Below, piece after piece: positions 3,119 through 56,239 of a stretch of DNA of 64,000 nucleotides. A program made the position numbers and the translations under genes. The notes under the pieces are model-generated. The model did not search any database. It saw only the letters and a list, made by a program, of their open reading frames with translations, and was not told the origin of the DNA. The stretch comes from an uncultured Leptospirales bacterium (GTDB taxonomy: Bacteria; Spirochaetota; UBA4802; UBA5550), in NCBI GenBank assembly GCA_964439325.1, contig CAYTNW010000008.1:69440-133439 (forward strand), written 5' to 3'. Within the stretch, counting starts at the first letter, position 1, and each line of letters starts with the position of its first letter.

Positions 3119-3152
3119 TTGATTAAAAATAATCCAATTAATGGTGAATTCT

Positions 3153-3806
3153 ATGAAACTCAGTGAACTGGTCAAAGAGCGTTATACTACAAAGGTGTTC
3201 GATCCCGGATTCAGGCTCAGTGATGAACAGGTTGATGAAATAAAAATGCTGCTACAATACTGTCCCTCATCGACGAATTCTCAGCCGTGGCACTTTATAA
3301 TCGCCGGAACCGAACAGGGAAAATCGCGCATTGCCTCGGCAGCCGCGGGACGGTACGAGGTCAATCTGCCGAAGATTAAGAACGCGTCGCATGTTGTGGT
3401 GCTCTGTTCCCGTTCTTTTATCGATGATAACTACCTTGAGTCCCTGCTTAAAAACGAGGAGCGCGACGGAAGGTTTGTCGACAGTGATGCGATGAAAAAC
3501 CAGCGGAATGTCCGCTCGTTCTATACCGGGATGCACAGGTTCGAGATGAAGGACGTCCAGCAATGGACCGAGAAGCAGATATATATAGTCCTCGGTACGC
3601 TGCTGCTCGGCGCGGCAGAGCTTGGTATAGACGCCTGCCCTATGGAGGGTTTCGATCCGGAGATACTTAACCGTGAACTCGGCCTCCGCGAAAAGGGTTT
3701 TACCGCTTCGCTTATAGTGGCGCTTGGGCGCCATGCCGGGAACGACTTTAATAAAAAGCTTCCGAAATCGAGATGGCCGCAGGATTATATTTTCACCGAA
3801 ATCTGA
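3153..3806 (+). CDS. nfsB: Oxygen-insensitive NAD(P)H nitroreductase, NfsB-like
   Basis: RYTTKVFD, PSSTNSQPWHF, IDACPMEGFD and LPKSRWP motifs. Start placed at ATG 3153 (MKLSELV). Confidence 0.88.
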   Translation: MKLSELVKERYTTKVFDPGFRLSDEQVDEIKMLLQYCPSSTNSQPWHFIIAGTEQGKSRIASAAAGRYEVNLPKIKNASHVVVLCSRSFIDDNYLESLLKNEERDGRFVDSDAMKNQRNVRSFYTGMHRFEMKDVQQWTEKQIYIVLGTLLLGAAELGIDACPMEGFDPEILNRELGLREKGFTASLIVALGRHAGNDFNKKLPKSRWPQDYIFTEI

Positions 3807-6556: not shown

Positions 6557-6689
6557 GTCATTTCGAGGAGCGATAGCGACGCGATCTATATTGTGAAATG
6601 GAGGAATGACAGTGAAGCGTATATTTTGCAACAGAAAACAGATTGCTTCACAGCGTTCATCCTGAGCCTGTCGAAGGGTTCGCAATGAC
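6557..6689. repeat. Palindromic miniature element of the GTCATTGCGAG...CTCGCAATGAC type
   Basis: Ends GTCATTTCGAGGAGCGATAGCGAC and AGATTGCTTC...TTCGCAATGAC. An internal TCATCCTGAGCCTGTCGAAGGG sub-motif is present. Confidence 0.75.
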
Positions 6690-6736
6690 AGGGTACTAAT
6701 CAAAGAAGTTGTACGCAGCATCTCTTCGCGGTTATG

Positions 6737-40206: not shown

Positions 40207-42549
40207 ATGTCGTTTATTGATGTAAGAACACTTCTGATCATTTATACTGTTATCACAGTTCTGTGTTTCCTTGTGATGTTTTTTTTATGGAGACAGAACC
40301 GCAGGCATTCGCCGGAGATCATTTACTGGCTGACCGATTATGCGATGCAATTCATCGCTCTTGTTTTAATTCTTCTGCGCGGCAGGATACCGGATTTCCT
40401 GTCCATTGTAGCGGCAAATTCGTTAATAATCTGCGGTATGATAGTATTTTATATAGGCCTTGAAAAATATGTTAAAAAAACAAGCCGTCATCTCCACCTT
40501 TACCTGGCGGCGCTGTTTTTTACCCTGCTGCAGTTCTATTTTACAACAGCTAATCCATCTCATGCAATGCGTTATATAAATCTCTCGGCGGCATTTTTAT
40601 ATATAAGTCTGCACGGTTCGATTCTTATGCTGAGAAGAACCGGACCTGAAATGCGTAATGAGACAAGGGCTACCGGTATCGTTCTGGTTTTTTTCTGTAT
40701 TGTGAATATTTCTCATATCATTATCAACCTGTCGATGAATGTCAGGGATGATCTGTTTGAAGCGGGCCTTTTTGATGCCATTACGCTGCTTGAATATCAG
40801 CTGCTTTTTATTCTGATGACATTTGCGCTGATACTAATGGTGAGCAGGAGGCTGCTCACAAAACTTGAGGTTGAGCTCGAGGAGCGGGTTACGGCGGAAG
40901 AGGAGCTGAAGAACAGCAGGCAGCGGTTTCAGTCACTGGTGGAAACACTTAGTGATTTTGTATGGGAGGTGGATCCTCTCGGGCACTACACCTATGTGAG
41001 CCCCCAGATAAAAAATATACTCGGTTACGATCCGGAAGAGATACTTGGTAAAACTCCGGCTGAACTGATGGACCCGAAAGAGGCAGATGCTGTCTGGAAG
41101 GCTTTTACAGAACTGGCATCAGTAAAAAAACAGGTCTTTGCCCTTGAAAATGTTAACATTCATAAAGACGGCCGCAGGGTGGTACTGGAAACCAACGGCA
41201 TGCCGTTTGTTGATGCTGAAGGCAGCCTGAAAGGATACCGGGGAACTGACCGGGACATCTCAGCACGTAAGAGGGCGGAGGAGGCACTTCTGCGAAGCGA
41301 GGAGAAGTTCTCCAGGGCCTTTCAGATCTCCAATGTCGGGATTGTAATAACAAGGATCAGAGACGGAAAAATCCTTGAAGTCAACGATGCCTTCGCTTCA
41401 TTACTCGGTTTTTCCAGGGATGAGATAATCGATAATACCTCACTGAAACTGAACAGCTGGGTCAATCCAGAAGACAGGAAACAGCTGATGTCTGAAATCG
41501 GCAACGGGAAATCGGTATACGGCCGTGAGTATCTTTTACGGAAAAGGAACGGTGAGATTCTTACGGTTCTGTTCTCCGCACACGCCATTTACCTGGACGG
41601 CGAGCTCTGCATGCTTTCAAATATAAACAATATAACAGACCGAAAAATGGCTGAAGAGGAGCTGCATAAACAGAAACGTTTTCTGTCAGACCTCATTGAG
41701 TATAACGGCGCCCTTGTGAGCATCAAGGACGTAGACAGCAGATATATACTTGTAAACAGGATGTGGGAGGAGAAAACAGGCCTGGACCGTAAGGATGTTA
41801 TAGGCAGGACCGATGAAGAGCTGTTTCCCGGAGAGACAGGCAGGCAGCTCCGGAAGAATGATCTTGAAGTGCTTGAATCGGGAAACGTAATCGAGAAAGA
41901 GGAGATAATCGCCGACGGCATAGGGAAACGCATTTTTCTCAGTATAAAATTTCCTCTCCGGAGCGATAACGGAGCAATCGAAGGACTTTGCGGGATGTTT
42001 AACGACATTACTGAACGGAAAGAAAACGAGGAAAAGATAAGGCACCTCGCCACGCATGATGTACTGACGGATCTTCCGAGCATGAGGCTCGCTAACGACA
42101 GGCTGGCTATGGCACTGAGTAATGCAAACAGACATAAAAACAGGATTGCAGTTATGTTCATCGATCTTGACGGATTCAAGAATATAAATGACACATCGGG
42201 CCACAATGCCGGAGATTTTGTTCTGAAGCAGGTGGCACAGCGTCTTCTCGGATGTGTGCGCTCCACCGATACGGTCGCACGCGTCGGCGGTGATGAATTC
42301 CTGCTTGTAATCACCGAGATCCATTCGTTTGATGATGCTGCAAAGATCGCTGAATCGGTGCTTGATTCCATTTCACAGCCGATTATTTTTGAAGACAGAC
42401 AGCTGAAGGTGGGTGCAAGCCTGGGGATCGCGGTTTATCCGGATCACGGCAGGGATATAAAGCGGCTTATTAAAAATGCGGATGAAGCGATGTACAGGGT
42501 TAAGGGTTCAGGAAAGAATAACTACTGTTTCTCCGGAGTTTTGATATAG
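40207..42549 (+). CDS. Membrane-bound diguanylate cyclase with three PAS domains
   Basis: About seven TM helices and three PAS/PAC repeats, then HDVLTDLP, FIDLDGFKNIND, GHNAGD, RSTD (I-site) and RVGGDEF. Confidence 0.95.
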   Translation: MSFIDVRTLLIIYTVITVLCFLVMFFLWRQNRRHSPEIIYWLTDYAMQFIALVLILLRGRIPDFLSIVAANSLIICGMIVFYIGLEKYVKKTSRHLHLYLAALFFTLLQFYFTTANPSHAMRYINLSAAFLYISLHGSILMLRRTGPEMRNETRATGIVLVFFCIVNISHIIINLSMNVRDDLFEAGLFDAITLLEYQLLFILMTFALILMVSRRLLTKLEVELEERVTAEEELKNSRQRFQSLVETLSDFVWEVDPLGHYTYVSPQIKNILGYDPEEILGKTPAELMDPKEADAVWKAFTELASVKKQVFALENVNIHKDGRRVVLETNGMPFVDAEGSLKGYRGTDRDISARKRAEEALLRSEEKFSRAFQISNVGIVITRIRDGKILEVNDAFASLLGFSRDEIIDNTSLKLNSWVNPEDRKQLMSEIGNGKSVYGREYLLRKRNGEILTVLFSAHAIYLDGELCMLSNINNITDRKMAEEELHKQKRFLSDLIEYNGALVSIKDVDSRYILVNRMWEEKTGLDRKDVIGRTDEELFPGETGRQLRKNDLEVLESGNVIEKEEIIADGIGKRIFLSIKFPLRSDNGAIEGLCGMFNDITERKENEEKIRHLATHDVLTDLPSMRLANDRLAMALSNANRHKNRIAVMFIDLDGFKNINDTSGHNAGDFVLKQVAQRLLGCVRSTDTVARVGGDEFLLVITEIHSFDDAAKIAESVLDSISQPIIFEDRQLKVGASLGIAVYPDHGRDIKRLIKNADEAMYRVKGSGKNNYCFSGVLI

Positions 42550-43065
42550 CTGGTTTAAAAGAGAAAATGCGGCGGATTGTTTAATTGTAAATCTGTTAAA
42601 ATCCGGCACCGTATTACGTCGCATTACCGGTTTGACGATTAGAGGCCGGGGCCAAAAATAAGCGTTATTAGTGAGTTTTTGTGTTGACTGTTATCGTGAT
42701 AATTAAGTATTTTATACAAAATATAACCTTAATCAGGAAGTTTGAGCACAGACAGAAATACGAATATAAGCCGGCATATACCTCTTGCAAGATAGATCCC
42801 GAAGAAATAATTTTCAGTAATACAGGCTGAAGAAGATTCAACTCCCGGGGAGTTCTCCAGAAGAAACAAAAAATCCTAATGGAGGTATATCAGGAAACCG
42901 GATATTATTTCTGATTCAATCGTGTTTCTCTGTATTCTGTGAAAATAGAAGTAAACAAAAAACCTGATAAGTGAAAATCTCTTTTAAGAGACAAAGCCCC
43001 TCCTGCAGCACCGATTTACGGGCTCTGTTCTTTAAAGGATATTTTCCGGAATAAAAATATAAATA

Positions 43066-45810
43066 ATGCGGATAACTGAATATATGAATTTTTTTAAAAA
43101 GTCAAAAGTGACAGGGCGGCCGGCCGGCCTCTATAAAAAGTATGCCGTTGTCTCGCTGATCATTTTGCTTTTCGTAGCGGTCGATATTAATATAGCAATT
43201 TCACAGAGTATGGTTGACCTCCTGCAGGGCAACCATACGGTCGGAGAGAATACGGCCGGCGGGAAGACTGATATTATCAAAACTCTCCAGAATCTCAAGG
43301 GTAAAAACGGAAACCCTGCCTCAACATCGATTAATACAAAACCGGACAACCAGAACCAGCAGAGTGCTGTTAATAACGCTGTAACAAACGGCAACGTGGA
43401 GCCGCCGGTTTTCATGGAAGAAGAGGAGCCTCTTTCAAAGATTGAGGAAACCTATAATTCATTGCTGGATGATGAGAACAAGGCCAAACTGAATGAAGAA
43501 AACATTATTAAGCCTGATACCGGCAAGAAGATAAGACAGTTCGGGTATGAATATTTTAAAAGGGCTGTCCCGGACAACTTCCTCCCAGTAGGTGACGGAT
43601 ACAAGGTGGGGCCGGGGGATACCATCTCGATCTATTTCTGGGGGGATCCGGTTGATATACTCGGTCTTAACGGCTTTTATACAATAACCGTGGACAGGGA
43701 CGGGAAGATATTTGTTCCGAATCTTGGCGTATTTTATGTATGGGGACTGGATATTCTCAGCATAAAAGATATTGTTCACAAATCGCTGGCGAAGAAATTC
43801 AAAAGGTTTGAAATAGCTCTGACCCTCGGGCAGCTTCGCCAGTTCCCTGTATATGTATCCGGCTATGTAAACAGACCCGGTGTGGTGCAGTCGCTGGGGA
43901 CCTATACTATAATGGATGTTCTGGTGCAGTCCGGCGGTATAGCCCGCAACGGGAGTCTCAGAAATATAGAGATTGTAAGAAAAGGGGAGAAAGGGTACGT
44001 CCGGATAAAGGTGGACCTCTACAACCTTTTTATTAAGGGTGAGCTTGCGAATGTTCCGGTGAAAGAGGGAGACAGTATCCTTGTCAACATGATCGGCAAA
44101 ACCGCGGCGGTCGCGGGCGATATAAAGAGGCCCGCTATATACGAAATTTTTGATAACGAGTCTGTTAAAGACGCTATAGAATACGCAGGGGGGCTCTCTT
44201 TTTCGGCCTACAATACAAGCGCAAGACACTTCCGCTTTGAAAATGACAGGGTAAAGGTCTATGAGGGGTCTCTGGCCGACAGCGGGTTTTCCCAGAAAAA
44301 ACTTTCAGATGGAGACTGTATTTCAATTCAGGGAGTAAACAATTCACTTGATAACCAGATCACGGTAGAGGGATACATCAAATATCCCGGCAGCTTTGAA
44401 TGGAAGAAGGGGGCCAGGCTCAGCGAAATACTCCGCAAGGCGGAACTTCTCCCCGATACCGATGCAGGTGTTGCGGATATCAGACGAATCGATTCATTGG
44501 AGGTGGTAAGCTTTTCACCGGCAGGGATTCTTTCCGGAAACGGAGATATTGAGCTCAGGAGAAGGGATGTTATAACTTTCTACCCCAGGTGGCTCAATGA
44601 ACCGGTGCATATATCGGGAGAGGTTGAGGAATCGAGGATTGTACCCTTTTATAACGGGCTTCTGCTCCTGGATGCGATGAAACAGATAAAGATTAAAAAA
44701 GATCCGGCCCTTCTGAAGGCTGAGATATTTTCTTCCAACCGGCAGATAATGAATAATATTAATATGCAGAAAAACAAAACCGGTAAAGACATCATTCAGC
44801 CGAAGAATAAAACTGTAACCGCCGGGACCATCCAGATTGACCAGGGTGCTTTTGACGGGCAGCTGCAGGATAATCAGATGCAGACAATCAAACCGATTGA
44901 AAGTAAAAAGAAGATATACCTTACAGATCTCCTTCTGCATGGAGACCCCGAAGCGAACATCCCCCTTGAACCTGGGGATAAAATCGTGATCAGAAGCGTT
45001 GAGAGCAACGAAAAGAACAAAACTGTGACAATCCTCGGCGAGGTCAGCAGACCAGGCGTTTACAGATATAAACCGGGAGATAAACTTTCCGATATAATTG
45101 AAGAGGCCGGCGGTTATTCCGATACAGCTTATCCACGCGGACTGATCTTTACAAGGCGTAATGCTCAGAAACTTCAGCTGAACCAGATAAACATCACGAT
45201 GATGTCTATGGAGGAGTATGCCGCAAAGAGCAGCGCGGGGCTCGGTGCTGCCGGAGGAAATGAGGAGGAGAAGAGCATCATTACAATGATGATGAAGCAG
45301 CAGGAGGAGATGCTCACGCTGATTAAGAGAAAATCGACTATGGCGCTAGGCCGTCTTGCGCTGGAGATCCCGTTTGATCTTCAGGGACTTAAAGAATCAA
45401 AGGACAACATAACTCTTGTTGAGGACGATTATATCTTTGTACCGGCAAAACCCAACTATGTTCTTGTGCTCGGTAATGTGTACAACCAGATATCGATGCC
45501 TCATGTCAAGGGGAAGACGGTGGGAAGATACCTTGATGATGTTGGAGGGCCGGCAAAAAGTTCTGACCTCAGCAGTATATATGTAATAAAGGCCAACGGC
45601 AAGATTATCTCCCGTGAGAGCTATGAATACCGGTACGGCTACACTATGTCGCTGTTCAGAAATATCGAACGGCTGGAGCTGGAGGAGGGAGATGCCGTTG
45701 TCGTGCCGTTCGAGATAAATATACCTGTTATGTGGAGGCCGATGCTCCGCGATATAACGCAGATAATATTCCAGTCGCTGTCGTCGCTTGTACTTGCGAG
45801 CAAACTGTGA
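43066..45810 (+). CDS. Polysaccharide export protein with multiple SLBB domains (Wza/KpsD-like)
   Basis: QFGYEYF, YKVGPGD, VSGYVNRPG, repeated G(E/D)(V/I)xRP(G/A)xY and AGG motifs, and LEEGDAVVVP. Confidence 0.9.
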   Translation: MRITEYMNFFKKSKVTGRPAGLYKKYAVVSLIILLFVAVDINIAISQSMVDLLQGNHTVGENTAGGKTDIIKTLQNLKGKNGNPASTSINTKPDNQNQQSAVNNAVTNGNVEPPVFMEEEEPLSKIEETYNSLLDDENKAKLNEENIIKPDTGKKIRQFGYEYFKRAVPDNFLPVGDGYKVGPGDTISIYFWGDPVDILGLNGFYTITVDRDGKIFVPNLGVFYVWGLDILSIKDIVHKSLAKKFKRFEIALTLGQLRQFPVYVSGYVNRPGVVQSLGTYTIMDVLVQSGGIARNGSLRNIEIVRKGEKGYVRIKVDLYNLFIKGELANVPVKEGDSILVNMIGKTAAVAGDIKRPAIYEIFDNESVKDAIEYAGGLSFSAYNTSARHFRFENDRVKVYEGSLADSGFSQKKLSDGDCISIQGVNNSLDNQITVEGYIKYPGSFEWKKGARLSEILRKAELLPDTDAGVADIRRIDSLEVVSFSPAGILSGNGDIELRRRDVITFYPRWLNEPVHISGEVEESRIVPFYNGLLLLDAMKQIKIKKDPALLKAEIFSSNRQIMNNINMQKNKTGKDIIQPKNKTVTAGTIQIDQGAFDGQLQDNQMQTIKPIESKKKIYLTDLLLHGDPEANIPLEPGDKIVIRSVESNEKNKTVTILGEVSRPGVYRYKPGDKLSDIIEEAGGYSDTAYPRGLIFTRRNAQKLQLNQINITMMSMEEYAAKSSAGLGAAGGNEEEKSIITMMMKQQEEMLTLIKRKSTMALGRLALEIPFDLQGLKESKDNITLVEDDYIFVPAKPNYVLVLGNVYNQISMPHVKGKTVGRYLDDVGGPAKSSDLSSIYVIKANGKIISRESYEYRYGYTMSLFRNIERLELEEGDAVVVPFEINIPVMWRPMLRDITQIIFQSLSSLVLASKL

Positions 45811-47002
45811 GGATATGATGAAGAGAAAAACGGCGCAGGAGAGTATAGCGGTTCCGGAATTTACCCGGCCTGAGATATATGAGGATGAGATAGATCTTCT
45901 TCAGCTGTGGAACACAATATGGTCAAACAGAAAATTTATCACTTATTTTACAGGAGCGGCGGTTATTCTGACAATAATCATCTCTCTGCTTATCAGCAAC
46001 AAGTATCTCGCTGAATCGACGATCCTCCCCGTTGCATCCAGCGGCTCGGGGATCCTTGGTGACCTTGCAGGGATGGCCTCGCTTGCAGGGATAAATGTCG
46101 GCGGGAATTCAGATAATTCGGCCAAGGTAATGATTGTGGCAAAAAGCCGCACAGTGAAAGAGCAGGTAATAAACGAACTGGGACTTGTTAAAATTATAGT
46201 GGATAAAGTTCCCGATAAACGTGATCCAATGCAGTATACCCTGGAGAAGTTTGATGACCTTCTAAATGTCAGCTCGGACAAGAAGACAGGGCTGATAACC
46301 ATAGGGTTTGAATGGAAAGACCCGAAACTTGCCGCGGATATTGTGAACAGGTATGTAAAGGCTATACAGGACGTACTGGAGATAAAAGCACTCAATATAA
46401 ACAAGATGGAAAGGATCTTCTATGAGAAAAAACTCAAGGAAGAGAAGGCCAAATTTTCGCAGCAGAAACATACGATGGCTGCATTTCAGAAAAGAAGCAA
46501 GATGATCGAGCCTGTTGAACAGGCAAAGGGTACAATGAGCCTCTACAGCACTCTTATGGCTCAGAAGATAGCGCTTGAACTGCAGATGCAGGGACTTGAA
46601 TCTGCGCTGTCGGCAGATAATCCGAGGCTTACGGCTCTAAAGGAGCAGATTGCGGCTATCAACAGAAAGATTCAGTCTATAGAGGGGAATACCAATGAGG
46701 GTGCTATTATATCTCTGGGGAACGCTCCGGACAAGATGGTGGAGTATACCGATATCCTGGAGGGTGTAAAAGTATCCGGGGGTGTATATGAAACCCTGGC
46801 GAAGCTCTATGAGAAATCAAAACTTGATGAAGCGAAAGACAACCTTTATGTTGAAGTCATAGATCCGGCGATTCCGCCTGACAAAAAATCAAAGCCCAAG
46901 AGGGCTTTAATGGTCATCGTTGCAGGTATGACTTCATCCTTTTTTTCGATATTTATTGTATTTTGCATGCAGTGGATTGACTCTGTCAAAAGAAAGAATT
47001 AA
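45788..47002 (+). CDS. Wzz/GumC-like chain-length regulator without a kinase domain
   Basis: DEIDLLQLWNTIW, two TM helices, a coiled coil and VIDPAIPPDKKSKPKR. Confidence 0.88.
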   Translation: MYLRANCEDMMKRKTAQESIAVPEFTRPEIYEDEIDLLQLWNTIWSNRKFITYFTGAAVILTIIISLLISNKYLAESTILPVASSGSGILGDLAGMASLAGINVGGNSDNSAKVMIVAKSRTVKEQVINELGLVKIIVDKVPDKRDPMQYTLEKFDDLLNVSSDKKTGLITIGFEWKDPKLAADIVNRYVKAIQDVLEIKALNINKMERIFYEKKLKEEKAKFSQQKHTMAAFQKRSKMIEPVEQAKGTMSLYSTLMAQKIALELQMQGLESALSADNPRLTALKEQIAAINRKIQSIEGNTNEGAIISLGNAPDKMVEYTDILEGVKVSGGVYETLAKLYEKSKLDEAKDNLYVEVIDPAIPPDKKSKPKRALMVIVAGMTSSFFSIFIVFCMQWIDSVKRKN

Positions 47003-47025
47003 CATGGAGATAGGGGGGAATTCCA

Positions 47026-48504
47026 GTGATCGGTAAATCGAGCTATATTATCGTATTTATATCAGCATTGGCTATTTCAGGTATTCTTGTTCCTTTTATA
47101 ATATTAATCTGTAAAAAATTCAATTTTTTTGACAGAATTGATGAACGGAAAAACCATAAGCACCAGGTGGGGAGGCTCGGCGGAGTAGGGATTGTAGCCT
47201 CTTTTTCAGCGGTTTTCTATTTTTTTATCAGGGAATATATACCTGTAGGAATTTCAGTAGGCTTTATATCAGCCTCTTTTATGCTGATTTTTTTGATGGG
47301 CTTCATAGATGACCTCAGGGGCCTGCGGGTCAGGTATAAGCTGTTTGCTCAGATTCTGGCCTCCTCCCTTGCCGTATATGGAGGGGTATGCCTCCCGGTG
47401 GTTGAATCCTTTAATATTGTTACAGAATACTCCATATATATTGATCCCGTTCTGACTGTGTTCTGGATTCTGGCTTTTATGAATGCGGTGAACCTTATTG
47501 ACGGAATGGATGGTCTTTCGTCGGGGATAGTTTTGACGGCCCTTGTTTTTTTTGCCGCAGTGGGTATACACAGCGGAAATTCCCTGCTGATTATGATCTC
47601 GATGGCTCTGGCCGGCAGTGTAGCCGGGTTTTTTATCTATAACTTTCATCCAGCGAAAATTTTTCTCGGTGACGCGGGCGCTTACTGCATCGGTTTTATT
47701 CTGGCGCTGATATTTCCCGTCTGTTTTGACGGTATAGTCAGCCTTAAAGTGACCCTTGTCCCTGTGGTGATTTTTCTTATCCCTTTCATGGATGTAGCCC
47801 AGGTGGTCACAAGACGTTTATGGCTGAAGACCGGCATTTTCAGGGCAGACAACAATCATATCCATCACAAGCTCCTTGCCGCCGGTTATAACTGCATCAG
47901 CGTGCTGGGGATTATCAGTTCAATAGGTGTAATTTTCGGATGCCTGGGAGTACTGGTCTGGAGAGAGAACAGCGTCTCATGTTTTTATATCTTTATTGTT
48001 ACCTTTATATTTGTATCGATTCTGCTTTTCAAACTCTCTTCAATTGAAGACCGTACAATCAAGCTGTCGAGCCTGGCTGAACCCGGATTCAAATGGTGGA
48101 AGCAGAGCCTGAGGTTTTATTCCGAAAGCGTCTTTATCAGCACGTTAAACGTCAACGGCAGAAAGAAGTCTCTGGTGGGCAACGTCTATGACCTCTCCAC
48201 CGACGGTTTTTTTTATGCCACAGATGCCGTCCTCAATCCTGAAGACAGGCTTTCGATTATTCTGATGTTCATAGACAGAAAGCCTCTGAGGCTTACCGCC
48301 GAGGTCGTATGGACAAATACAAAGCCGAACTCAAATTCTCTGCCGAAAGGATACGGCTGCTGTTTTGTCGGGATAAAAGCCCTTGCGCGTAAAAGAATTA
48401 AATATCATCTGATTTCCAACAAGGCCCCTCTGAGGCTCAGGGTTAAAAAAGAGGAGAGGCCTGCGTCAGTTATAAGAATAATTTCCGGGGGTAGGGTTTT
48501 ATAG
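47026..48504 (+). CDS. wecA: WecA/MraY-family undecaprenyl-phosphate GlcNAc-1-P transferase with a C-terminal PilZ-like domain
   Basis: RLGGVGI, GFIDD, NAVNLIDGMDGL, IFLGDAG and HIHHKL; tail KQSLR...DLSTDG...AEVVW...GYGCCF. Confidence 0.88.
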   Translation: MIGKSSYIIVFISALAISGILVPFIILICKKFNFFDRIDERKNHKHQVGRLGGVGIVASFSAVFYFFIREYIPVGISVGFISASFMLIFLMGFIDDLRGLRVRYKLFAQILASSLAVYGGVCLPVVESFNIVTEYSIYIDPVLTVFWILAFMNAVNLIDGMDGLSSGIVLTALVFFAAVGIHSGNSLLIMISMALAGSVAGFFIYNFHPAKIFLGDAGAYCIGFILALIFPVCFDGIVSLKVTLVPVVIFLIPFMDVAQVVTRRLWLKTGIFRADNNHIHHKLLAAGYNCISVLGIISSIGVIFGCLGVLVWRENSVSCFYIFIVTFIFVSILLFKLSSIEDRTIKLSSLAEPGFKWWKQSLRFYSESVFISTLNVNGRKKSLVGNVYDLSTDGFFYATDAVLNPEDRLSIILMFIDRKPLRLTAEVVWTNTKPNSNSLPKGYGCCFVGIKALARKRIKYHLISNKAPLRLRVKKEERPASVIRIISGGRVL

Positions 48505-48550
48505 CATAACCTGTACCCGCTCCGCATTAAATGGCAGATAAATAATCCTG

Positions 48551-48620
48551 CATCGTGGCCCATCCGCTTTTAATCCGTGTCAATCGAGCGGAGCGGGCGG
48601 AAAAATGAGTGACCGCAGAT
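48551..48620. repeat. Direct-repeat copy 1 flanking the MNT-HEPN pair
   Basis: Core TTTAATCCGTGTCAATCGAGCGGAGCGGGCGG at 48569-48600. Confidence 0.9.
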
Positions 48621-48759
48621 AAAAGAAAAGACAGACTTTAAAATACCAGACCTTTGAGCCCATGTGTACGATGAGTATTTAAATGGCAGGATTTTTCAAT
48701 TGACATTCGGATTCTTATTCTGCCATTTAATAATCGGGAATATATCAGGAAGGTGCATA

Positions 48760-49086
48760 ATGTATTCATCAAAGGACATAAATAATATAACAGATATTGT
48801 TTTAAGGAAAATGAAAGATGTTGTCAGTATCTATCTTTTTGGAAGTTATGCTAAAGGTACAGCACGTGATGACAGCGATATTGATATAGCGATTCTTTTA
48901 AAAAAATTACCTGACTGGCGTGAGCGTAAAAATGTTTTGAATCAGATTTATAATGAAGCAGGGGTATTCAATTACAATGTGGATTTTCTTATTAAATCTA
49001 AAGATAGCTTTGAAAGTGAAAAAACACTGCCGACGTTGTCACGTGTTATAGAAAGAGAAGGTAAACTTTTGTGGACAAAAAAATAG
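48760..49086 (+). CDS. Minimal nucleotidyltransferase (MNT) antitoxin
   Basis: YLFGSYAKG...SDIDIA. Start placed at ATG 48760 after GGAAGG. Confidence 0.9.
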   Translation: MYSSKDINNITDIVLRKMKDVVSIYLFGSYAKGTARDDSDIDIAILLKKLPDWRERKNVLNQIYNEAGVFNYNVDFLIKSKDSFESEKTLPTLSRVIEREGKLLWTKK

Positions 49087-49478
49087 AAGAACTTATCTCT
49101 CAATGGATTATTAAAGCAGATAATGATTACAAAACTATTGTTAACGAAATGTCATCCAAAGAGCCTGTAACGGATTCAATTTGTTATCATGCACAACAGG
49201 GTGTTGAGAAATATTTGAAGACTTTTCTTGTAAAAAACGGGATAGAACCTTTGAAGACTCATAATATAGCATTTCTACGTAGAGAATGTGAAAAAATTGA
49301 TCCGGATTTTTCTTCATTGAGTAATCTGGATTACCTTTCGGACTACGCAGTTGAATTAAGATATCCTGATAGTTTTTATATACCATCACTTGAAGAAGCA
49401 AAAGAAGCTTATGAAGATGCATTAAAAGCCAGAAGTTTTATTAAAACAAAAATTATAGATAATTTGCCGAAGGATTAA
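49071..49478 (+). CDS. HEPN domain protein (toxin partner)
   Basis: CYHAQQGVEKYLK, KTHNI and LRYP. Overlaps the MNT stop. Confidence 0.9.
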   Translation: MDKKIEELISQWIIKADNDYKTIVNEMSSKEPVTDSICYHAQQGVEKYLKTFLVKNGIEPLKTHNIAFLRRECEKIDPDFSSLSNLDYLSDYAVELRYPDSFYIPSLEEAKEAYEDALKARSFIKTKIIDNLPKD

Positions 49479-49485
49479 AATAATT

Positions 49486-49556
49486 CATCTGTGTCCATCC
49501 TGCTTTAATCCGTGTCAATCGAGCAGAGCGGGCGGTAAAAAAGATAGCCACAGATG
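49486..49556. repeat. Direct-repeat copy 2 flanking the MNT-HEPN pair
   Basis: Core at 49504-49535 matches copy 1 at 31 of 32 bases and is bracketed by the inverted repeat CATCTGTG/CACAGATG. Confidence 0.9.
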
Positions 49557-49619
49557 TTGTTTTTATTAAATTTAGTAACGTAATCCCGCATTCCACTTGA
49601 CAAAAAGTTTATATTCTAA

Positions 49620-49642
49620 TTTTGTTCAATACATGAACAAAA
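49620..49642. promoter_or_regulatory. Perfect dyad over the MarR start codon (candidate operator)
   Basis: TTTTGTTCA-ATACA-TGAACAAAA, just downstream of TTGACA at 49597. Confidence 0.6.
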
Positions 49643-49974
49643 CATCTGAAAACATCTCCATAGAAGATACTTACCTGATTTTCAAGTCGATTGAGAAAGA
49701 GAATATTTCGACACAGCGTGATTTTGCCGGTAAACTCGGATACAGCCTGGGGAAGGTGAATTATCTGGTAAAAGCCCTTATGGAGAAAGGCCTTATAAAG
49801 ATTGAAAATTTTTCCAAAAGCAATAACAAACTCGGATACAGATACGTTCTGACACCGCATGGTATAAATGAAAAATACCGTATCACTGCTGATTTTCTGA
49901 AAAGGAAAGAGGCGGAGTTTATAAAAATGCAGGTTGAGATTGAGGAGCTGAGACGGGAAATGGAGCAGACGTAA
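49633..49974 (+). CDS. EPS-associated MarR-family transcriptional regulator
   Basis: STQRDFAGKLGYSLGKVNY...ENFSKSNNKLGYRYVLTPHGI...FLKRK. Located in a polysaccharide locus. Confidence 0.92.
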   Translation: MNKTSENISIEDTYLIFKSIEKENISTQRDFAGKLGYSLGKVNYLVKALMEKGLIKIENFSKSNNKLGYRYVLTPHGINEKYRITADFLKRKEAEFIKMQVEIEELRREMEQT

Positions 49975-50015
49975 ATGGTACACGGGTAAAAGCAGTTGTA
50001 TTATAAAATTAAAAC

Positions 50016-51395
50016 ATGAGTATAATGAAAAAAATATCGGATATAGAAGCAGTAATAAAACAGGGAGAAAGTCAGACTGTTGAATTTAAGCAGTCGTTTG
50101 ACAAAGAAGCCATTGAGACTGTATCTGCTTTTGCAAATAGCAGTGGAGGAATTTTAATTATCGGTGTTAAAGATAATGGAGCAGTCTCTGGAATAACTAT
50201 AAGTAGAGAAACTGTACCGCAGTATATAAACCAGATTAAAAATTCCACTGAACCGTCTTTGATTGTGGATATAATATCTTTCGAGATAGAAAAAAAGAAT
50301 ATTCTGGTTATTAAAGTCGATGAGTTTCCGATTAAACCGGTAAATTATAAAGGAAGATATTTTAAAAGGGTATCGAACAGTAACCATCAGATGACGCCGA
50401 CAGAAATATCAAATTTACATATGCAGTCGCTTCAGTTGTCATGGGATGCGTATTTTTCCAATGAAAATTTACAGAAAGAGATTGATCCGGAAAAAGTAAA
50501 AAATTTTTTTGATAGAGTAAACAAAACCGGAAGATTTGTTCTGAACGCAACATTTGAGGAAAACCTGCAGAAACTTAATCTGTTAAAAGACGGAAAAATT
50601 ACAAATGCGGCATGGCTGCTGTTTTCAAAGGAACAGACTGTTTATAATATACATATAGGACGTTTCAAAACTCCATCCATGATTTTAGATGATAAAATGA
50701 TTAAAGCCGCCCTCTTTGAAGCTGTAGATGAAGTAATGCTTTATATCCTGTCTCATATCAAGGTGGCGTTTGAGTTTACCGGAGACATAGAGCGCAGGGA
50801 AATATTTGAATATCCTAAAGAAGCAATCAGAGAGCTCGTATTAAATGCAATAGTTCACAGGGACTATACCAGCTCCGTGGATGTCCAGATAAAAATATTT
50901 GATAAGTCCATAACGTTTTTCAATCCTGGAAAATTATACGGCGATCTTACCGTTGAGCAGTTGAAGACAGACTCTTACCAGTCCAGGACAAGAAATAAAC
51001 TCATAGCGGAAGCTTTTTATCTGACTGGTGATATAGAAAAATACGGAAGCGGGTATATACGAGTAAGAGAGGCTATTGCAAGTTATCCGACAATGAAGTT
51101 CGAATATCAGGAGACTGGTGACGGTTTTTTAGTGACTTTACGTTATGAAAAACAAAAGACTACCCAAAAGACTACCCAAAAGACTACCCAAAAGACTACC
51201 CAAAAGACTACAAAACAGTTGATCCTTGATTTGATCATATCTGATCCGGCAATCACAAGAGAAGAACTGGCAGATAAAATCGGAGTAACGCCCGATGCGG
51301 TTAAACAGCATATGGCAAATTTGAAAAAGGATGGAATTATTAAAAGATCAGGCGGGAGGAAAGGGGGCAGATGGGAGGTAATTTCAGATGATTGA
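50016..51395 (+). CDS. AlbA_2/Schlafen-like domain, HATPase-like domain and C-terminal wHTH protein
   Basis: GESQTVEFK, SAFANSSGG.LIIGV, AIRELVLNAIVHRDY, IEKYGSG and a terminal HTH (LKKDGIIKRSG..KGGRWEV). Confidence 0.88.
   Translation: MSIMKKISDIEAVIKQGESQTVEFKQSFDKEAIETVSAFANSSGGILIIGVKDNGAVSGITISRETVPQYINQIKNSTEPSLIVDIISFEIEKKNILVIKVDEFPIKPVNYKGRYFKRVSNSNHQMTPTEISNLHMQSLQLSWDAYFSNENLQKEIDPEKVKNFFDRVNKTGRFVLNATFEENLQKLNLLKDGKITNAAWLLFSKEQTVYNIHIGRFKTPSMILDDKMIKAALFEAVDEVMLYILSHIKVAFEFTGDIERREIFEYPKEAIRELVLNAIVHRDYTSSVDVQIKIFDKSITFFNPGKLYGDLTVEQLKTDSYQSRTRNKLIAEAFYLTGDIEKYGSGYIRVREAIASYPTMKFEYQETGDGFLVTLRYEKQKTTQKTTQKTTQKTTQKTTKQLILDLIISDPAITREELADKIGVTPDAVKQHMANLKKDGIIKRSGGRKGGRWEVISDD
51153..51212 (+). 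repeat. In-frame 12-bp tandem repeat, five copies (QKTT)
   Basis: CAAAAGACTACC four times plus CAAAAGACTACA. Confidence 0.95.
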
Positions 51396-51466
51396 TGCCG
51401 GTAATCGCCTGCGTAAAGTATTTTTATTTAGAATAGTGTTACAAGGAATATGATGAGTTTTTAAAA

Positions 51467-51622
51467 AACAACAAGCTTGGATACAGGTATGTTCTGACTC
51501 CTCATGGTATAAATGAAAAATACCGAATCACTGCTGATTTTCTGAAACGGAAAGAGGCTGAATTTATAAAGATGCAGATAGAGATTGAAGTGCTTAAACG
51601 TGAAATTGAACAAATAATATAG
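51467..51622 (+). pseudogene. Second copy of the marR 3' end (51 codons)
   Basis: Translates NNKLGYRYVLTPHGINEKYRITADFLKRKEAEFIKMQIEIEVLKREIEQII*. No 5' half is present. Confidence 0.93.
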
Positions 51623-51798
51623 ATATCTATAAATATGATATTGAATACATCAGGGTATATTTATGAAGATATAGTATATTAAACCGGTATTTATAGAGAA
51701 TTTTTGATTTGATAATTAAAATGTATTTAATTAATTAGGAATAATGAAATAGTAAGCCATTGAATGTAAAATGTAGCATGCAGTGCGGGGAGGATGGA

Positions 51799-52035
51799 AT
51801 GTTAAGAGAAATTATTAAACCTACAGAGCAGAATTATTTATTGCGGATACCAAAAGAGTACTTAAATAGAAACGTAGAGATTTTAGTATTGCTGCTTGAT
51901 GGAGAATCAGACAATCAGTCAATTAAGAGCGATAAGGAAATATTAAAAAAGACGGCAGGTATATTCAAAAACAGAAATATAGATCCGCTGAAATGGCAAC
52001 GGAACATAAGAGCTGAGTGGGATGATAGAACATGA
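51799..52035 (+). CDS. Probable antitoxin of the adjacent PIN toxin
   Basis: Small ORF after GGGGAGG, with an ATGA overlap with the PIN gene and a C-terminal IRAEWD. Confidence 0.7.
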   Translation: MLREIIKPTEQNYLLRIPKEYLNRNVEILVLLLDGESDNQSIKSDKEILKKTAGIFKNRNIDPLKWQRNIRAEWDDRT

Positions 52036-52406
52036 AGTATTTACTTGATTCAAATATAATAATATATCATTTGAATGGTGAAGATATTGCTACAAGGTTT
52101 ATTTTTAATAATAGAGATGTATGTGCAATTTCCAGAATAACATATATTGAAGTTTTGTCGTTTGAATTTTCGGTTGAGGAAGAAAGCGACGTAAAAGAAC
52201 TTCTGGAAAGTTTTGTTATTATAGATACAAATAAAGAGATCGCGATCCAATCAATTAAAAATATTAAATCTGTAAAGATAAAAGTACCGGATAACATTAT
52301 TGCTTCAACAGCACAGGTTAATAATATGACTTTGGTTACGAGAAATATTTTAGATTTTCATTCGTTAGATGTTAAAATGCTGAATATTTTTGATGAAATA
52401 ATATAG
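52032..52406 (+). CDS. vapC: PIN-domain (VapC-like) toxin
   Basis: YLLDSNIII, ITYIEVL, PDNIIASTA and LVTRNILDF. Confidence 0.9.
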   Translation: MKYLLDSNIIIYHLNGEDIATRFIFNNRDVCAISRITYIEVLSFEFSVEEESDVKELLESFVIIDTNKEIAIQSIKNIKSVKIKVPDNIIASTAQVNNMTLVTRNILDFHSLDVKMLNIFDEII

Positions 52407-52482
52407 ATGAAAGTATAGAACCACAAATTTTTAACTTTGATCTTTAAACTGTATAGTGCTTACTTCGAAGTGAATTAGTAAG

Positions 52483-52578
52483 AAGTATCATCTCACTGCT
52501 GCCTTTTTAAAAAGAAAGTAAACTGAGTTTATAAAGATGCAGATGGAGATTGAAGATTTCGAAGTTGAGCAGGTATAG
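52483..52578 (+). pseudogene. Third, decayed copy of the marR 3' end
   Basis: Translates KYHLTAAFLKRK*TEFIKMQMEIEDFEVEQV*, with an internal TAA. Confidence 0.85.
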
Positions 52579-52733
52579 TTGTTGTAAAAATGAAAAAATT
52601 AATATTTTTAAAATGTTATAAGTATTATCTTAGATGAGGAAGTTATTACAATCGTAAAGAAAATAAAAGGAAGTAGCAGATATTTTTACCGTAATCTTCA
52701 GGGTAAAGATAAAAATATTAAATAGGATTTGTT

Positions 52734-54023
52734 TTGTATAAATTTATAAAATATAAGTTGAAAGTTGAAAGCAATAAACGGCTCATCTCAAATTTTATTT
52801 CCCTTGCGGTTCTTCAAGGGGCATCATACATTTTACCGCTTATTACATTGCCCTATCTTGTGCGCGTGTTGGGACCGGAAAGATTTGGACTAGTTGCTTT
52901 TGCAACATCAACTGTAGCATATTTTCAGGTAATTACTGATTACGGATTTGATTTATCTGCGACAAGACATGTATCAATAAACCGAGACAATAATGAAAAC
53001 CTTATTGAAATATTTAGTTCTGTAATAGCGATCAAATTTATATTGATGTTTGTTAGTTTGATTTTATTGTCTATTATTATTTTTTCTTTTGAAAAATTCA
53101 GTGTTAATTGGAAGATTTATTATTTAACTTTTGGGATGGTTTTAGGCCAGATTCTTTTTCCGGTATGGCTTTTTCAGGGACTTGAAAATATGAAGTATAT
53201 TACAGTGTTAAATATAGTAGCAAAGTTGATTTTTACTGTAGCAATATTTGTTGTGGTTAAAACAGAAAATGATTATTTGTATGTACCATTATTAAATTCA
53301 ATAGGGATACTTATTGCAGGAATCAGCGGATTTGTTATTTCTATAAAAATGCTTAATGTGAAATTTAGTTATAGAAAAATATTATTGAAAAAATATGCTA
53401 TATCCAGTTTTCCTATCTTTGGATCAGTTGTATCTTCATCTATATTATACAATAGCCCGGCGCTTTTACTCGGTACACTAACTAATTATCATATCGTTGG
53501 TCTTTATTCCGCTGCTGAAAAAATTATATATGCGATAAGAAGTTTTTTATATATTTTTCATCAGACAGTTTTTCCACGATTGTCAAAACTTTATTATGAC
53601 AATATCAATAAATACTTTTACCTGTGGAAAACATTTTTTCTTGTAATTGTCATTGTATCATTTTCTGTTGCAATAATCTGTAATATTTTTTCCGAAACAA
53701 TAACAAACGTTATTTTTGGTTCAAATTTTTCCGAAAGTGGAGAGATTTTTAAAATTTTATCCATAACCATTATGACGTATTCAATTTATACTATGTTAGG
53801 TTTGGAAAGCCTGATTATAACTGGCCATACGAAACAGTTGGTATATTCTCAAATAATTCCAATTATTATTTATTTAATTATTTCACCATTCGTCTTGAAC
53901 TATTTAAGTATAATTCCTTTTGTTTTTTGCTTAATTATTGCAGAATTCATGATAATAATAATCAGATTATTTTTTTTAAATATGAATGGTTTCTTTTCTT
54001 TAAATAAAAAATATGATAAATAA
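52734..54023 (+). CDS. wzx: O-antigen/polysaccharide flippase
   Basis: LPLITLPYLVRVLGPERFG, TDYGF, FPVWLFQG and VGLYSAAEKI; polytopic. Confidence 0.92.
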   Translation: MYKFIKYKLKVESNKRLISNFISLAVLQGASYILPLITLPYLVRVLGPERFGLVAFATSTVAYFQVITDYGFDLSATRHVSINRDNNENLIEIFSSVIAIKFILMFVSLILLSIIIFSFEKFSVNWKIYYLTFGMVLGQILFPVWLFQGLENMKYITVLNIVAKLIFTVAIFVVVKTENDYLYVPLLNSIGILIAGISGFVISIKMLNVKFSYRKILLKKYAISSFPIFGSVVSSSILYNSPALLLGTLTNYHIVGLYSAAEKIIYAIRSFLYIFHQTVFPRLSKLYYDNINKYFYLWKTFFLVIVIVSFSVAIICNIFSETITNVIFGSNFSESGEIFKILSITIMTYSIYTMLGLESLIITGHTKQLVYSQIIPIIIYLIISPFVLNYLSIIPFVFCLIIAEFMIIIIRLFFLNMNGFFSLNKKYDK

Positions 54024-54025
54024 TA

Positions 54026-54970
54026 TTGGTAAATATGAGCCCAAATGATTTTCTAAATATTAATAATAATCAGGCATTAATCCTTGTATCCGATGATGAT
54101 ATAATAAGATATAAGTCTTCATCAGGTGGTGCAATCACATCTATAATTAAGTCATTGTTTGAATCTGAAAGTATAAAATCGACGATAACTTTTAATTTTA
54201 CTTATGACCTGTTTAAACCAGAGATTATTTATTCTTTCAATGAATACAAAATATGTGGATCAATTTACCACAATATAAATATACCTCGGTTTATTAAAGA
54301 TAATATTGATGTTATTAAGTTACCCTTTCTTGTCGTTTGCCTACCTTGTCAAGTAAATGCAATACGAAAAGTATTCATTATGAATGAAATAACTGAATAC
54401 TTTATTATTTCTTTAATCTGTTCTTCTCAACAAAGTAAAGACGCGACTTATTTTTTATTTAAAAAGTTAAAAATAAACATTAATGATATTTCACTTTTTC
54501 AGTATAGAGGTAATGGATGGCCCTCTGGTGTTACTATTAAGCTTAAAAATAGTAATACATTTTTTCTCTCAAATGAGAATTCATTGTGGACAGATATTTT
54601 TCATTCTCAAATTTTTACAATAAAACGTTGTTTTAGATGTCATTCAACTTTTGGAGAAGATGCTGATATTTGTGTAGGTGATCCATGGAATATTGAATTA
54701 TTGAAAAATGATAATGTAGGCGCTTCTCTTGTTTTTATTAATAATAGTACAGGCTTGGAAATTATCAAAAAAATGATTTTTAAAAATTCATTAAGAATTA
54801 TTGAAAGAATTTCATTGGAACAGGCCTATGATACTCAAAAATGGACTGCTCAAAAGAAATTGGTTTTTAATGTGTACGGTAAAATATTCCAATATTTATT
54901 GAAAATAATTAGGAATAATTTATACATAAATGTTGTTTTTGGACATTCCACAAAATGCACACCGGGATAA
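54026..54970 (+). CDS. FrhB/FdhB-like (coenzyme F420 hydrogenase beta subunit-like) protein
   Basis: RYKSSSGG, CLPCQV, LICSS, YRGNGWP, RCFRC and ADICVGDPW. Confidence 0.85.
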   Translation: MVNMSPNDFLNINNNQALILVSDDDIIRYKSSSGGAITSIIKSLFESESIKSTITFNFTYDLFKPEIIYSFNEYKICGSIYHNINIPRFIKDNIDVIKLPFLVVCLPCQVNAIRKVFIMNEITEYFIISLICSSQQSKDATYFLFKKLKININDISLFQYRGNGWPSGVTIKLKNSNTFFLSNENSLWTDIFHSQIFTIKRCFRCHSTFGEDADICVGDPWNIELLKNDNVGASLVFINNSTGLEIIKKMIFKNSLRIIERISLEQAYDTQKWTAQKKLVFNVYGKIFQYLLKIIRNNLYINVVFGHSTKCTPG

Positions 54971-55012
54971 TTGTGAAATTAATACCAATACTTTATGCCA
55001 GGATAAAAAAAA

Positions 55013-56239
55013 ATGAAAATTACAATTATTAATCAACATACATCAAATCGTGGGGATGAGGCAGCAGCTAAGGCTCTCCTTAGAGCCATTAAAAAATACT
55101 CAGATTTGATTGAATCAATAGATATTGTGTATAATAGACAAAATATTTTGAAAAAGGATGATGAAATTAGTATAGAAGGATTGTCTATCTCTCATCATAG
55201 TAGTGGAAATTTTATGTTAGTTGATAAACTTATAATGATGGCAACATTTTTATTTCCTTTTCAATTAGCAAAGATTTTGATAAAATTTAGTAATTGGCAG
55301 GATGAACTAAAATTGATGGAGAAAGCGGATGTAATAATTAGTTCTCCATGCGGAGTAAATATGGGACTTTATCAGGATTGGCATTACCTATGGAGGTTGT
55401 TTGTTTCTGTAAAGCTTAATAAAAAAGTTGCTATTTATTCAACCTCATTTGGTTTTGTGGAAAGTAAAAGGTTTAATTTTTTATCATACCTTTTTAATAA
55501 AGTAAGTATGTATGTTCTCAATCATATAGATTTTCAATCATATAGAGATAGTAAAAGTCAAGAATTAGCTAAGTCCTTGAAATTAAATTATATTGATTCC
55601 ATTGATACTGTTTTTCTAGATAGTTATTATGAATCGGATTTACCAGATAATTTAAAGTTTTTAAATAATATGGATTACGTAGTTTGTGTTACTAATGAAT
55701 TATATAATTGGCATCCAAATTTTAAAAACATAAAAACTGATAAATTAGATAAAATTTATGTTAATATAATTGATAATTTTTTGAATAAAAACATTTCAGT
55801 AATATTACTCCCACAATTATTTGGTTTAGTTAATGATGAAAAGTATTGTTCATTATTAAGAGAAAAGTCGTGTGACAAATCAAATGTATATGTTATACCT
55901 GAACTCACTAATTCAGATATACATCAGTGCATTATTAAAAAATCTATATTTGTCATCGGAGGGAGATATCATTCAAGTGTATTTGCAATAAGAAACAGTA
56001 TACCATTTGTCTGTTTATCCTATGAGCATAAGATGGAATATATGCTGTCAATATTGAATCTTAGTTTTTTAAATATTGACCTTAATAGTATAATAAAAGG
56101 TAATTTAGATTATATGGATAAGATTAATAAATATTTTGATAGCAAAGATATAATAAATATTGCTGACGCTCGTAAAAAAGCTATTTCAATAGCAAATAAT
56201 ACTTTTTCTGTTTTTTGTAAGGATTTTTTGTTTAAATAA
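55013..56239 (+). CDS. Polysaccharide pyruvyl transferase family protein
   Basis: SNRGDEAA, YRDSKS, IGGRYHSSVFA and LSYEHKM. Confidence 0.87.
   Translation: MKITIINQHTSNRGDEAAAKALLRAIKKYSDLIESIDIVYNRQNILKKDDEISIEGLSISHHSSGNFMLVDKLIMMATFLFPFQLAKILIKFSNWQDELKLMEKADVIISSPCGVNMGLYQDWHYLWRLFVSVKLNKKVAIYSTSFGFVESKRFNFLSYLFNKVSMYVLNHIDFQSYRDSKSQELAKSLKLNYIDSIDTVFLDSYYESDLPDNLKFLNNMDYVVCVTNELYNWHPNFKNIKTDKLDKIYVNIIDNFLNKNISVILLPQLFGLVNDEKYCSLLREKSCDKSNVYVIPELTNSDIHQCIIKKSIFVIGGRYHSSVFAIRNSIPFVCLSYEHKMEYMLSILNLSFLNIDLNSIIKGNLDYMDKINKYFDSKDIINIADARKKAISIANNTFSVFCKDFLFK

Follow-up and report, generated by a model that had tools for sequence, protein, structure and literature searches.

Truncated marR copies alternate with toxin-antitoxin and Schlafen-type modules at the border of a spirochaete polysaccharide locus: a candidate homology-anchored displacement array

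Results

Layout of the marR locus

We analysed a stretch of 64 kb from an uncultured Leptospirales bacterium (contig CAYTNW010000008.1 of assembly GCA_964439325.1; hereafter the window), in which a gene for a small MarR-type regulator, marR, is followed by two 5′-truncated copies of its own 3′ end (tails 2 and 3), each preceded by a module of other genes (cargo). The intact gene belongs to the MarR_EPS family, with a whole-protein TIGR04176 score of 126.7 bits (cut-off 88) over positions 6-105 of the 105-position model. Read from the ATG at 49633 it encodes the 113-aa product recorded in public collections, which is matched exactly on Logan contigs. It heads a polysaccharide cluster, with wza, wzz and wecA upstream and wzx, wzy, glycosyltransferase, pyruvyl transferase and epimerase genes downstream, and the layout in relatives is alike. 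A preliminary description of this DNA gave the order as marR, Schlafen/AlbA gene, tail 2, antitoxin-vapC, tail 3 and wzx, and this order holds in searches with Pfam and TIGR04176. The genes and tails of the region listed in Table 1 all lie on the + strand, so that the cargo is co-oriented with marR.

The locus spans a series of steps in guanine plus cytosine (GC) content. The wecA/PilZ gene is the last of a conserved export and initiation block (wza, wzz, wecA) of ~45% GC, which extends to 48.4 kb; values then fall to 33-39% across the MNT-HEPN pair, marR and the Schlafen gene, to ~29% in vapBC, and to ~25% in the variable polysaccharide block (wzx-wzy), of which wzx is the first gene. Comparisons below draw on loci of relatives, designated by L numbers. 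The MarR protein and an alignment of 25 close homologues served as queries in scans that yielded 3 genomic loci, which include one Leptospirales and one Spirochaetota metagenome-assembled genome, and 80 metagenomic loci; look-ups of exact proteins led to longer contigs.

Table 1. Features of the marR region, in window coordinates
Feature	Position	Strand	Remarks
wza-type exporter	43066-45810	+	Upstream of wzz
wzz	45788-47002	+	Between wza and wecA
WecA-like initiating glycosyltransferase fused to PilZ	47026-48504	+	Pfam Glycos_transf_4, PilZ
77-nt repeat D5, copy a	48544-48620	+	Non-coding, 75% identical to copy b
MNT-HEPN pair	48664-49478	+	Pfam Polbeta/NTP_transf_2, HEPN
77-nt repeat D5, copy b	49479-49555	+	Directly upstream of marR
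Intact MarR_EPS gene	49597 (TTG) or 49633 (ATG) to 49974	+	TIGR04176
Conserved marR core, putative crossover zone	49903-49947	+	Encodes KRKEAEFIKMQ.EIE
Cargo 1, "Schlafen B": SLFN_AlbA_2, HATPase_c_4 and winged helix-turn-helix (wHTH)	50016-51395	+	Pfam
marR tail 2	~51458-51622	+	5′-truncated, mosaic copy
Cargo 2: antitoxin-like open reading frame (ORF; 51760-52035) and PIN/VapC-like gene (52032-52406)	51760-52406	+	
marR tail 3	~52451/52456-52578	+	Decayed 5′-truncated copy with TGA and TAA stops
Wzx flippase	52734-54023	+	Pfam Polysacc_synt

Tail 2 carries the signature of a functional allele and a mosaic breakpoint

Positions 51467-51612 align without gaps to 49822-49967 of the intact gene, at 86% identity over 146 nt (tblastn E = 1e-24), and blastn against relatives places the left edge of tail 2 at ~51458. 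The tail has no usable in-frame start codon. Over codons 76-112, 12 of 37 codons differ from the resident gene, all of them synonymously and without a single amino-acid change, exactly as first described. Under neutral drift of either copy, the chance that 12 of 12 differences would be synonymous is 4e-9 to 1e-7, a signature of purifying selection which shows that the left part of tail 2 derives from a functional allele rather than from a decayed duplicate. The preliminary description was correct on this point, but its view of tail 2 as simply an older tail has to be given up, since the tail is a mosaic: the left part is resident-like, and the last 12 codons with the downstream sequence resemble a vapBC-linked allele. 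Over codons 84-112, tail 2 shares 92% identity with the resident gene (7 synonymous and 0 non-synonymous differences) and 72% with the tail of L021, while codons 113-123, which like all right-end comparisons of tails amount to a 33-nt segment, are 91% identical to the L021 tail versus 73% to the resident gene. Followed site by site, the switch falls at 51550-51572, corresponding to 49905-49927 of the intact gene and inside the core.

Tail 3 is a diverged copy closest to alleles of other genomes

Tail 3 is likewise real (tblastn E = 1e-8; blastn against the marR genes of relatives, E down to 6e-21). Its left limit had been set at 52483, and our alignments move it to ~52451-52456. A TGA (52471-52473) accompanies the internal TAA noted earlier (52519-52521), and close to its end tail 3 differs in length by 6 nt. 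It shares 71% identity with tail 2 (100 nt) and 69% with the resident gene (codons 84-112); the nearest sequences are alleles of other genomes, with 80% to L077_t1. The grouping of the tails, which the preliminary description had named as a check, is therefore not that of one recent local duplication. The junction between vapC and tail 3 is common to L009 and L094, and by eye the non-marR left flank also occurs at the L008 tail. As a separate observation, an inverted repeat containing TTCGAA (52458-52470/52556-52570) brackets tail 3 and is not found in the other copies; this hairpin folds better than shuffled sequences (z of -2 on the + strand and -3 on the - strand).

The array is not an assembly artefact

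Since the window is a metagenomic assembly, and single-run contigs break within the Schlafen gene, we considered a trivial origin, either as a chimera of strain variants or as a decayed recent local tandem duplication. Logan assemblies from five runs of the same digester sample series, SRR10083292-96, reproduced 40288-51182 and 51182-56035 at 100%, and the sole break is a 12-nt tandem repeat in the Schlafen gene at which all single-run assemblies stop. At the cargo-to-tail junctions unrelated sequences meet, something that cannot arise from a k-mer graph, and the junctions recur in contigs from other samples at 10-20% divergence. Identical independent assemblies together with junctions recurring elsewhere lead us to reject an assembly chimera. 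A recent duplication in situ is rejected as well, since it is contradicted by the synonymous-only changes and by tails that are nearest to alleles of other genomes. We give a trivial origin of either kind a negligible probability.

Conservation of marR peaks in a 45-nt core

Conservation along the gene was computed across 14 full marR alleles. The core shows the highest mean pairwise DNA identity within the gene (0.84-0.86), its third codon positions reach 0.65-0.67 compared with 0.38-0.63 elsewhere, and most of the longest identical runs between pairs of alleles fall within it. These properties make the core the place where diverged alleles would most naturally recombine by homology. It is also nearly intact in decayed tails whose 5′ parts are scrambled (win_t3 and L008_t).

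The elevated third-position conservation could reflect either an overlapping DNA or RNA signal or homogenisation through recombination. The former would fit an explanation in which tails are retained by function: they would be kept for a signal in the core (a promoter, operator or RNA element) or for truncated MarR peptides, and only those insertions that re-supply the signal ahead of the polysaccharide operon would survive, whichever mechanism had inserted them. The near-intact core of the decayed tails and the third-position peak speak for retention, as does the persistence of cargo-to-tail junctions through ~20% divergence, and several tails of relatives lie in ORFs with start codons (L077 1219-1380, L021 856-1083, L007 1349 onward). 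Against it, promoter-like sites across the region are not above chance (17 versus 20 expected from shuffles), the Rfam families searched over 47.5-53.5 kb gave only two sub-threshold chance matches, tail 2 lacks an in-frame start and tail 3 contains stops. Repeated conversion from functional alleles would explain the conserved core of the tails equally well, and we regard retention by function as unlikely. Terminator-like sites number 5 versus 1.9 expected, and 0 lie within tails.

Relatives carry empty sites and re-assorted arrays

Both empty sites and alternative cargo, which the preliminary description had proposed to look for, were found in relatives. L098 has the order wza-wzz-wecA/PilZ-epimerase-VapBC-marR-wzx; metK and sugar genes come after marR in L087 and L004, and degT in L088-91. 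L087, L088 and L098 have a single marR each, and no marR tails were detected in the empty-site loci apart from one decayed marR-like stretch in L004 (11617-11856). Extra tails or whole copies occur in about half of the distinct loci of the close clade, and among distant MarR_EPS loci (<60% identity) extra copies are found in L019 and L052 only.

Partial marR tails, for which the preliminary description had suggested a survey of other genomes, are present in L007, L008, L009/L094, L021, L077 and L097. L077 has two Schlafen genes, first A and then B, each followed by a tail. L094, a contig that unites L021 and L009, begins with a decayed tail, VapBC′, a tail and window-type vapBC, and continues with a tail, DUF4160/DUF2442, an intact marR and an epimerase gene. 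In L007 a zeta-toxin-like fragment precedes an intact marR, a DUF4258-like/zinc-finger antitoxin-like pair and a partial marR (cargo assigned by eye); L008 has a tail, a frameshifted VapBC and an intact marR; and L097 has a paralogous marR, a tail, sugar genes, a PemK pair and an intact marR. Cargo between marR copies thus includes, besides the modules of the window, VapBC variants, DUF4160/DUF2442, the DUF4258/zinc-finger pair, a second Schlafen gene and PemK.

Identical modules recur in differing combinations. Window positions 49828-51554, comprising the marR 3′ end, Schlafen B, its junction and the next tail, are colinear with L077 1234-2960 at 80.8% identity, and in L077 another Schlafen gene occupies the place of the 5′ part of the window's marR. 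Positions 51458-52069 match L021 917-1530 at 89.6%, where the tail begins ~50 nt further to the left, behind another VapBC pair. Positions 52162-52556, comprising vapC, the junction and tail 3, match L009 1-418 at 81.6%; what follows is wzx in the window, DUF4160/DUF2442 with an intact marR in L009/L094, and VapBC″ with an intact marR behind the L008 tail. In L021/L094 the tail-vapBC-tail block therefore differs from that of the window in the module upstream of it, in its left boundary and in the cargo that follows. Throughout, each displaced 3′ end keeps its genes: the right end of tail 2 stays with vapBC in L021/L094, and the 3′ end that precedes Schlafen B stays with it in L077.

The bodies of the tails behave differently from their junctions, and look like other marR copies of the genome in which they lie. 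L009_t and L009_full share 95% identity; L077_t2 is nearest to the L008_full type (88% identical) and to L077_t1, the other tail of its genome (82%), and only 72% identical to win_t2, despite a common Schlafen-to-tail junction. Shared junctions with diverging tail bodies indicate that the junctions are older than the bodies, and since bodies are overwritten from functional alleles, their divergence is not a clock. The age gradient of the preliminary description, in which older tails lie progressively further from the intact gene, does not generalise. In L094 the intact gene lies distal to every other marR copy of the contig, with three tails upstream of it, and decay is strongest in the most proximal tail, so that a strict proximal-to-distal polarity is rejected. 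L097 carries two complete copies, as does L005/L010, where two intact genes lie 9.3 kb apart.

Several further observations concern individual loci. In L005 (1410-11738) each intact marR is followed by a GxxExxY-type gene (by eye) with differing low-complexity repeats; between the copies lie a collapsed metK remnant (3015-3374), a frameshifted epimerase gene, a PIN pair, two genes that by eye resemble the ORF6N type, and what is left of a Schlafen-type C-terminal wHTH (6574-6858). In L097 (3468-4223) a 5′-truncated window-type tail lies 200 nt behind an intact marR of another subfamily (59% to P0036), and judging from this arrangement it looks as if the 5′ half of marR and its promoter had been replaced by a paralogue. 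In L092 (10406-11829) insertion sequence fragments (rve_3, HTH_Tnp_1) directly follow marR, so that transposable elements also land at the marR border.

Cargo modules and the upstream flank

Schlafen B gives partial matches to Argonaute-associated Schlafen-type models of PADLOC. A 12-nt tandem repeat (51153-51218) encodes a (KTTQ)n linker ahead of its C-terminal wHTH, and the Schlafen paralogue of L077 has (NEGV)n in the corresponding linker position (~950-1000). In cargo 2 the PIN toxin gene scores 47 bits against a Pfam cut-off of 23.6 and is preceded, with a 4-nt overlap, by a 91-aa antitoxin-like ORF that has no family match in Pfam or curated family models; the PIN gene and the small overlapping ORF together predict a VapBC-like pair.

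The proposal that marR is a landing zone for toxin-antitoxin (TA) and defence-like modules fronting the low-GC polysaccharide block was borne out, and the zone is not limited to the 3′ side of the gene. Upstream, between the two copies of the 77-nt repeat D5, lies what is predicted to be an inserted TA-type module, the MNT-HEPN pair, whose genes overlap (MntA model 51 bits, cut-off 60; PADLOC candidate family PDC-S09). TA pairs also stand just upstream of marR in L098, L087, L004 and L005. Within D5, a doubled ATC(T/C)GTGTC motif is succeeded by GAGCGGAGCGGGCGG. The window contains exactly two copies of the 20-nt D5 core versus 0 expected, so that a high-copy genomic repeat is rejected for the 64 kb. 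Elements related to D5 were found upstream of HEPN/MNT in L004 (6942-6997) and upstream of full marR genes in L008 (986-1027, where the core itself matches) and L094 (~2660-2810; only the distal part matched, E 0.003, core by eye). D5 may be an operator, a terminator or a recombination anchor.

Evidence bearing on a site-specific recombinase

Repeated 3′ gene ends behind inserts are the classic mark of integrases that target gene ends, and chromosomal integron arrays typically carry TA cassettes. We therefore considered that the modules are remnants of integrative elements whose distant or lost integrase targets the 3′ end of marR and provides a new end in its place, as happens at tRNA genes, so that the tails would be attR-type remains left by tandem accretion; integron-like systems whose integrase lies elsewhere are included here. 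The co-orientation of all cargo with marR is in keeping with such a mechanism, as is the position of the left junctions, of which at least 5 independent ones fall within an 85-nt zone (49762-49846), whole copies also occurring. Within that zone, however, the boundaries vary from one independent junction to the next. As the preliminary description had stated, the left boundaries of the copies differ and no recombinase is visible: 0 of 48 long ORFs scanned over the 64 kb has a recombinase or transposase domain, no tRNA gene lies in the window, and no integrase stands next to any related array. The units are just 0.7-1.6 kb. Alignment of the copies reveals no conserved motif 3′ of the marR stop codons, and an attC-like structure is rejected for the full 3′ end and tail 2, which give no fold signal (z of -1.0 to +0.6 against shuffles). 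Insertions are flanked also by a different, non-coding repeat, D5, and the occurrence of insertions on both flanks of marR argues against a single specific site at the 3′ end. The absence of a recombinase, the variable left boundaries and the lack of a post-stop motif and of an attC-like fold disfavour a site-specific recombinase, which we consider very unlikely. A shared crossover point inside the conserved coding core is nonetheless compatible with the sequences.

Neighbouring genes

A PAS-GGDEF protein is encoded at 40207-42549, 4.5 kb upstream of the WecA-PilZ gene, and the C-terminal PilZ domain is weakly present in the L098 counterpart also; the combination suggests control of polysaccharide initiation by cyclic di-GMP. 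Just after wzx, genes for an FrhB/FdhB-like protein and a polysaccharide pyruvyl transferase form a pair (54026-56239).

Discussion

The arrangement is best read, with modest confidence, as a homology-anchored displacement array at the border of the low-GC polysaccharide block. According to this model, marR sits between the conserved export/initiation genes (~45% GC) and the low-GC polysaccharide genes, which are exchanged horizontally. DNA of a related strain, bearing a marR 3′ end with a different downstream module, would enter the cell and cross over with the resident gene by homologous, presumably RecA-dependent recombination. The crossover would fall preferentially in the 45-nt core, the sole part of the gene in which diverged alleles are almost the same. 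At its far end, the incoming DNA may then be attached by illegitimate joining, within or upstream of the resident marR, or by homology in an existing tail. In either case the resident 3′ end and its linked genes would be pushed downstream as a 5′-truncated tail. Existing tails would serve as portable homology through which modules could be shuffled between arrays, and their bodies would be overwritten through exchange with functional alleles, while TA cargo would probably resist deletion between tails.

Several points weigh against this interpretation. No donor molecule or recombination intermediate was seen, and natural competence of these uncultured spirochaetes would have to be assumed. The left junctions cluster within 85 nt instead of being spread over the gene, which could mean a constraint beyond displacement, and the raised third-position conservation of the core could mark a function at the DNA or RNA level. 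The right-hand segments of 33 nt carry little statistical power, and the right ends of win_full and L077_t1, which both precede Schlafen B, are only 61% identical.

A related route is of the Campbell type, in which small circles carrying a marR 3′ fragment and cargo, arising for example by tail-to-tail excision in another cell, would integrate via a single homologous crossover in the resident marR. The product would be gene, cargo and tail, with both marR copies chimeric. Such a step would generate the mosaic of tail 2 at once by a crossover within the core, and would account for direct repeats of local sequence around every module, including D5 around MNT-HEPN. It would also account for cargo-to-tail junctions that move with the cargo, as does the Schlafen B-tail junction, colinear in the window and L077; and arrays of direct repeats are capable of excising circles. 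We found no circular form, however, and no marR fragment on viral contigs, phage records or plasmids, the plasmids yielding only distant, single, full-length MarR_EPS genes. A single crossover leaves the intact copy upstream of the tail, whereas L094, L008 and L009 show tails upstream; rescuing the model there requires further marR copies outside these contigs. The product is, moreover, the same as that of a linear double event using a pre-existing tail. The repeated single-crossover integrations envisaged in the preliminary description thus stand in part: no circle or Campbell step was demonstrated, and the product is no different when a linear fragment recombines by one homologous crossover. 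As an account in its own right the Campbell route is possible but doubtful, and the single-crossover circle is a viable sub-variant of the displacement array.

Displacement of this kind has precedents. The logic was proposed for effector-immunity arrays of type VI secretion (T6SS) in Vibrio cholerae (Kirchberger et al. 2017, PMC5361080), a paper which cites Jackson et al. 2009 and Koskiniemi et al. 2014 for orphan arrays of Rhs and of CdiA-CT/CdiI of contact-dependent inhibition (CDI). Like the marR array, Rhs, CDI and T6SS arrays consist of an intact gene followed by 5′-truncated fragments with a conserved part, a variable 3′ end and linked genes. Entry is proposed to be by a homologous anchor with illegitimate or homologous joining, no dedicated recombinase is involved, and whole arrays are later shuffled through homologous recombination. 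Unlike them, the anchor here is a 113-aa wHTH regulator of a polysaccharide locus and not a polymorphic toxin; the cargo (self-contained TA pairs and Schlafen-type genes) is functionally unconnected with the anchor; insertions are found upstream as well; and the intact copy can be distal.

A second comparison is with restriction-modification (R-M) units, for which Furuta et al. 2010 (PMC2853133) described "insertion with long target duplication" (units <20 kb, direct repeats >30 bp) and proposed a cycle in which units insert, are amplified through the repeats and are released. These too are small selfish or defence units without mobility genes, whose flanking direct repeats of tens to hundreds of bp are single-copy in empty genomes, and the marR units resemble them in their size of 0.8-1.6 kb, in their repeats of 77-165 nt and in the single marR of the empty sites L087, L088 and L098. 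The R-M repeats are near-identical, however, whereas the marR repeats are 71-92% identical and differ by synonymous changes, which indicates that they come from different alleles and are not target duplications. The cargo is TA or Schlafen-type rather than R-M, and several units are stacked.

Chromosomal integrons share with the marR array small, co-oriented, promoter-poor and TA-rich cassettes that are bounded by repeats, newer ones displacing older ones. They differ in having intI, attI and an attC-type fold, of which the marR array has none (the fold being absent from the full 3′ end and tail 2, and tail 3 having its private hairpin), and the repeat here is part of a protein-coding gene, its left end varying. 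The core might be a dedicated recombination site in its own right, a protein-coding counterpart of attC used by an unlinked recombinase to capture and reshuffle TA and defence cassettes. We hold this to be a long shot; if true, it would mean an integron-like cassette system at spirochaete polysaccharide loci with its site hidden in a regulator gene.

Horizontal exchange affects the polysaccharide (O-antigen/EPS) clusters of spirochaetes. In Leptospira, a horizontally transferred rfb (O-antigen) cluster is delimited by marR, and PMC9736851 and PMC10958091 leave the transfer mechanism open. As there, a MarR-type regulator starts a low-GC, exchanged polysaccharide cluster, a likeness that does not presuppose orthology of the two marR genes. 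The searched passages of the two papers make no mention of marR tails or TA stacks. What is new in the locus described here is a small regulator as the anchor, TA and defence-like cargo, and a position at the border of a polysaccharide locus, while the logic of displacement and orphan arrays is known.

If the displacement array is the correct reading, the logic of polymorphic toxins also acts on an ordinary regulator gene, stacking TA and defence-like modules without any mobility gene. This would be relevant to the formation of defence and TA hotspots beside surface-antigen loci, and partial copies of a flanking gene may be usable as markers of such hotspots in metagenomes. The tails would be physical scars that place crossovers in a 45-nt stretch of marR, and with them the question of how polysaccharide clusters are transferred in Leptospira becomes testable.

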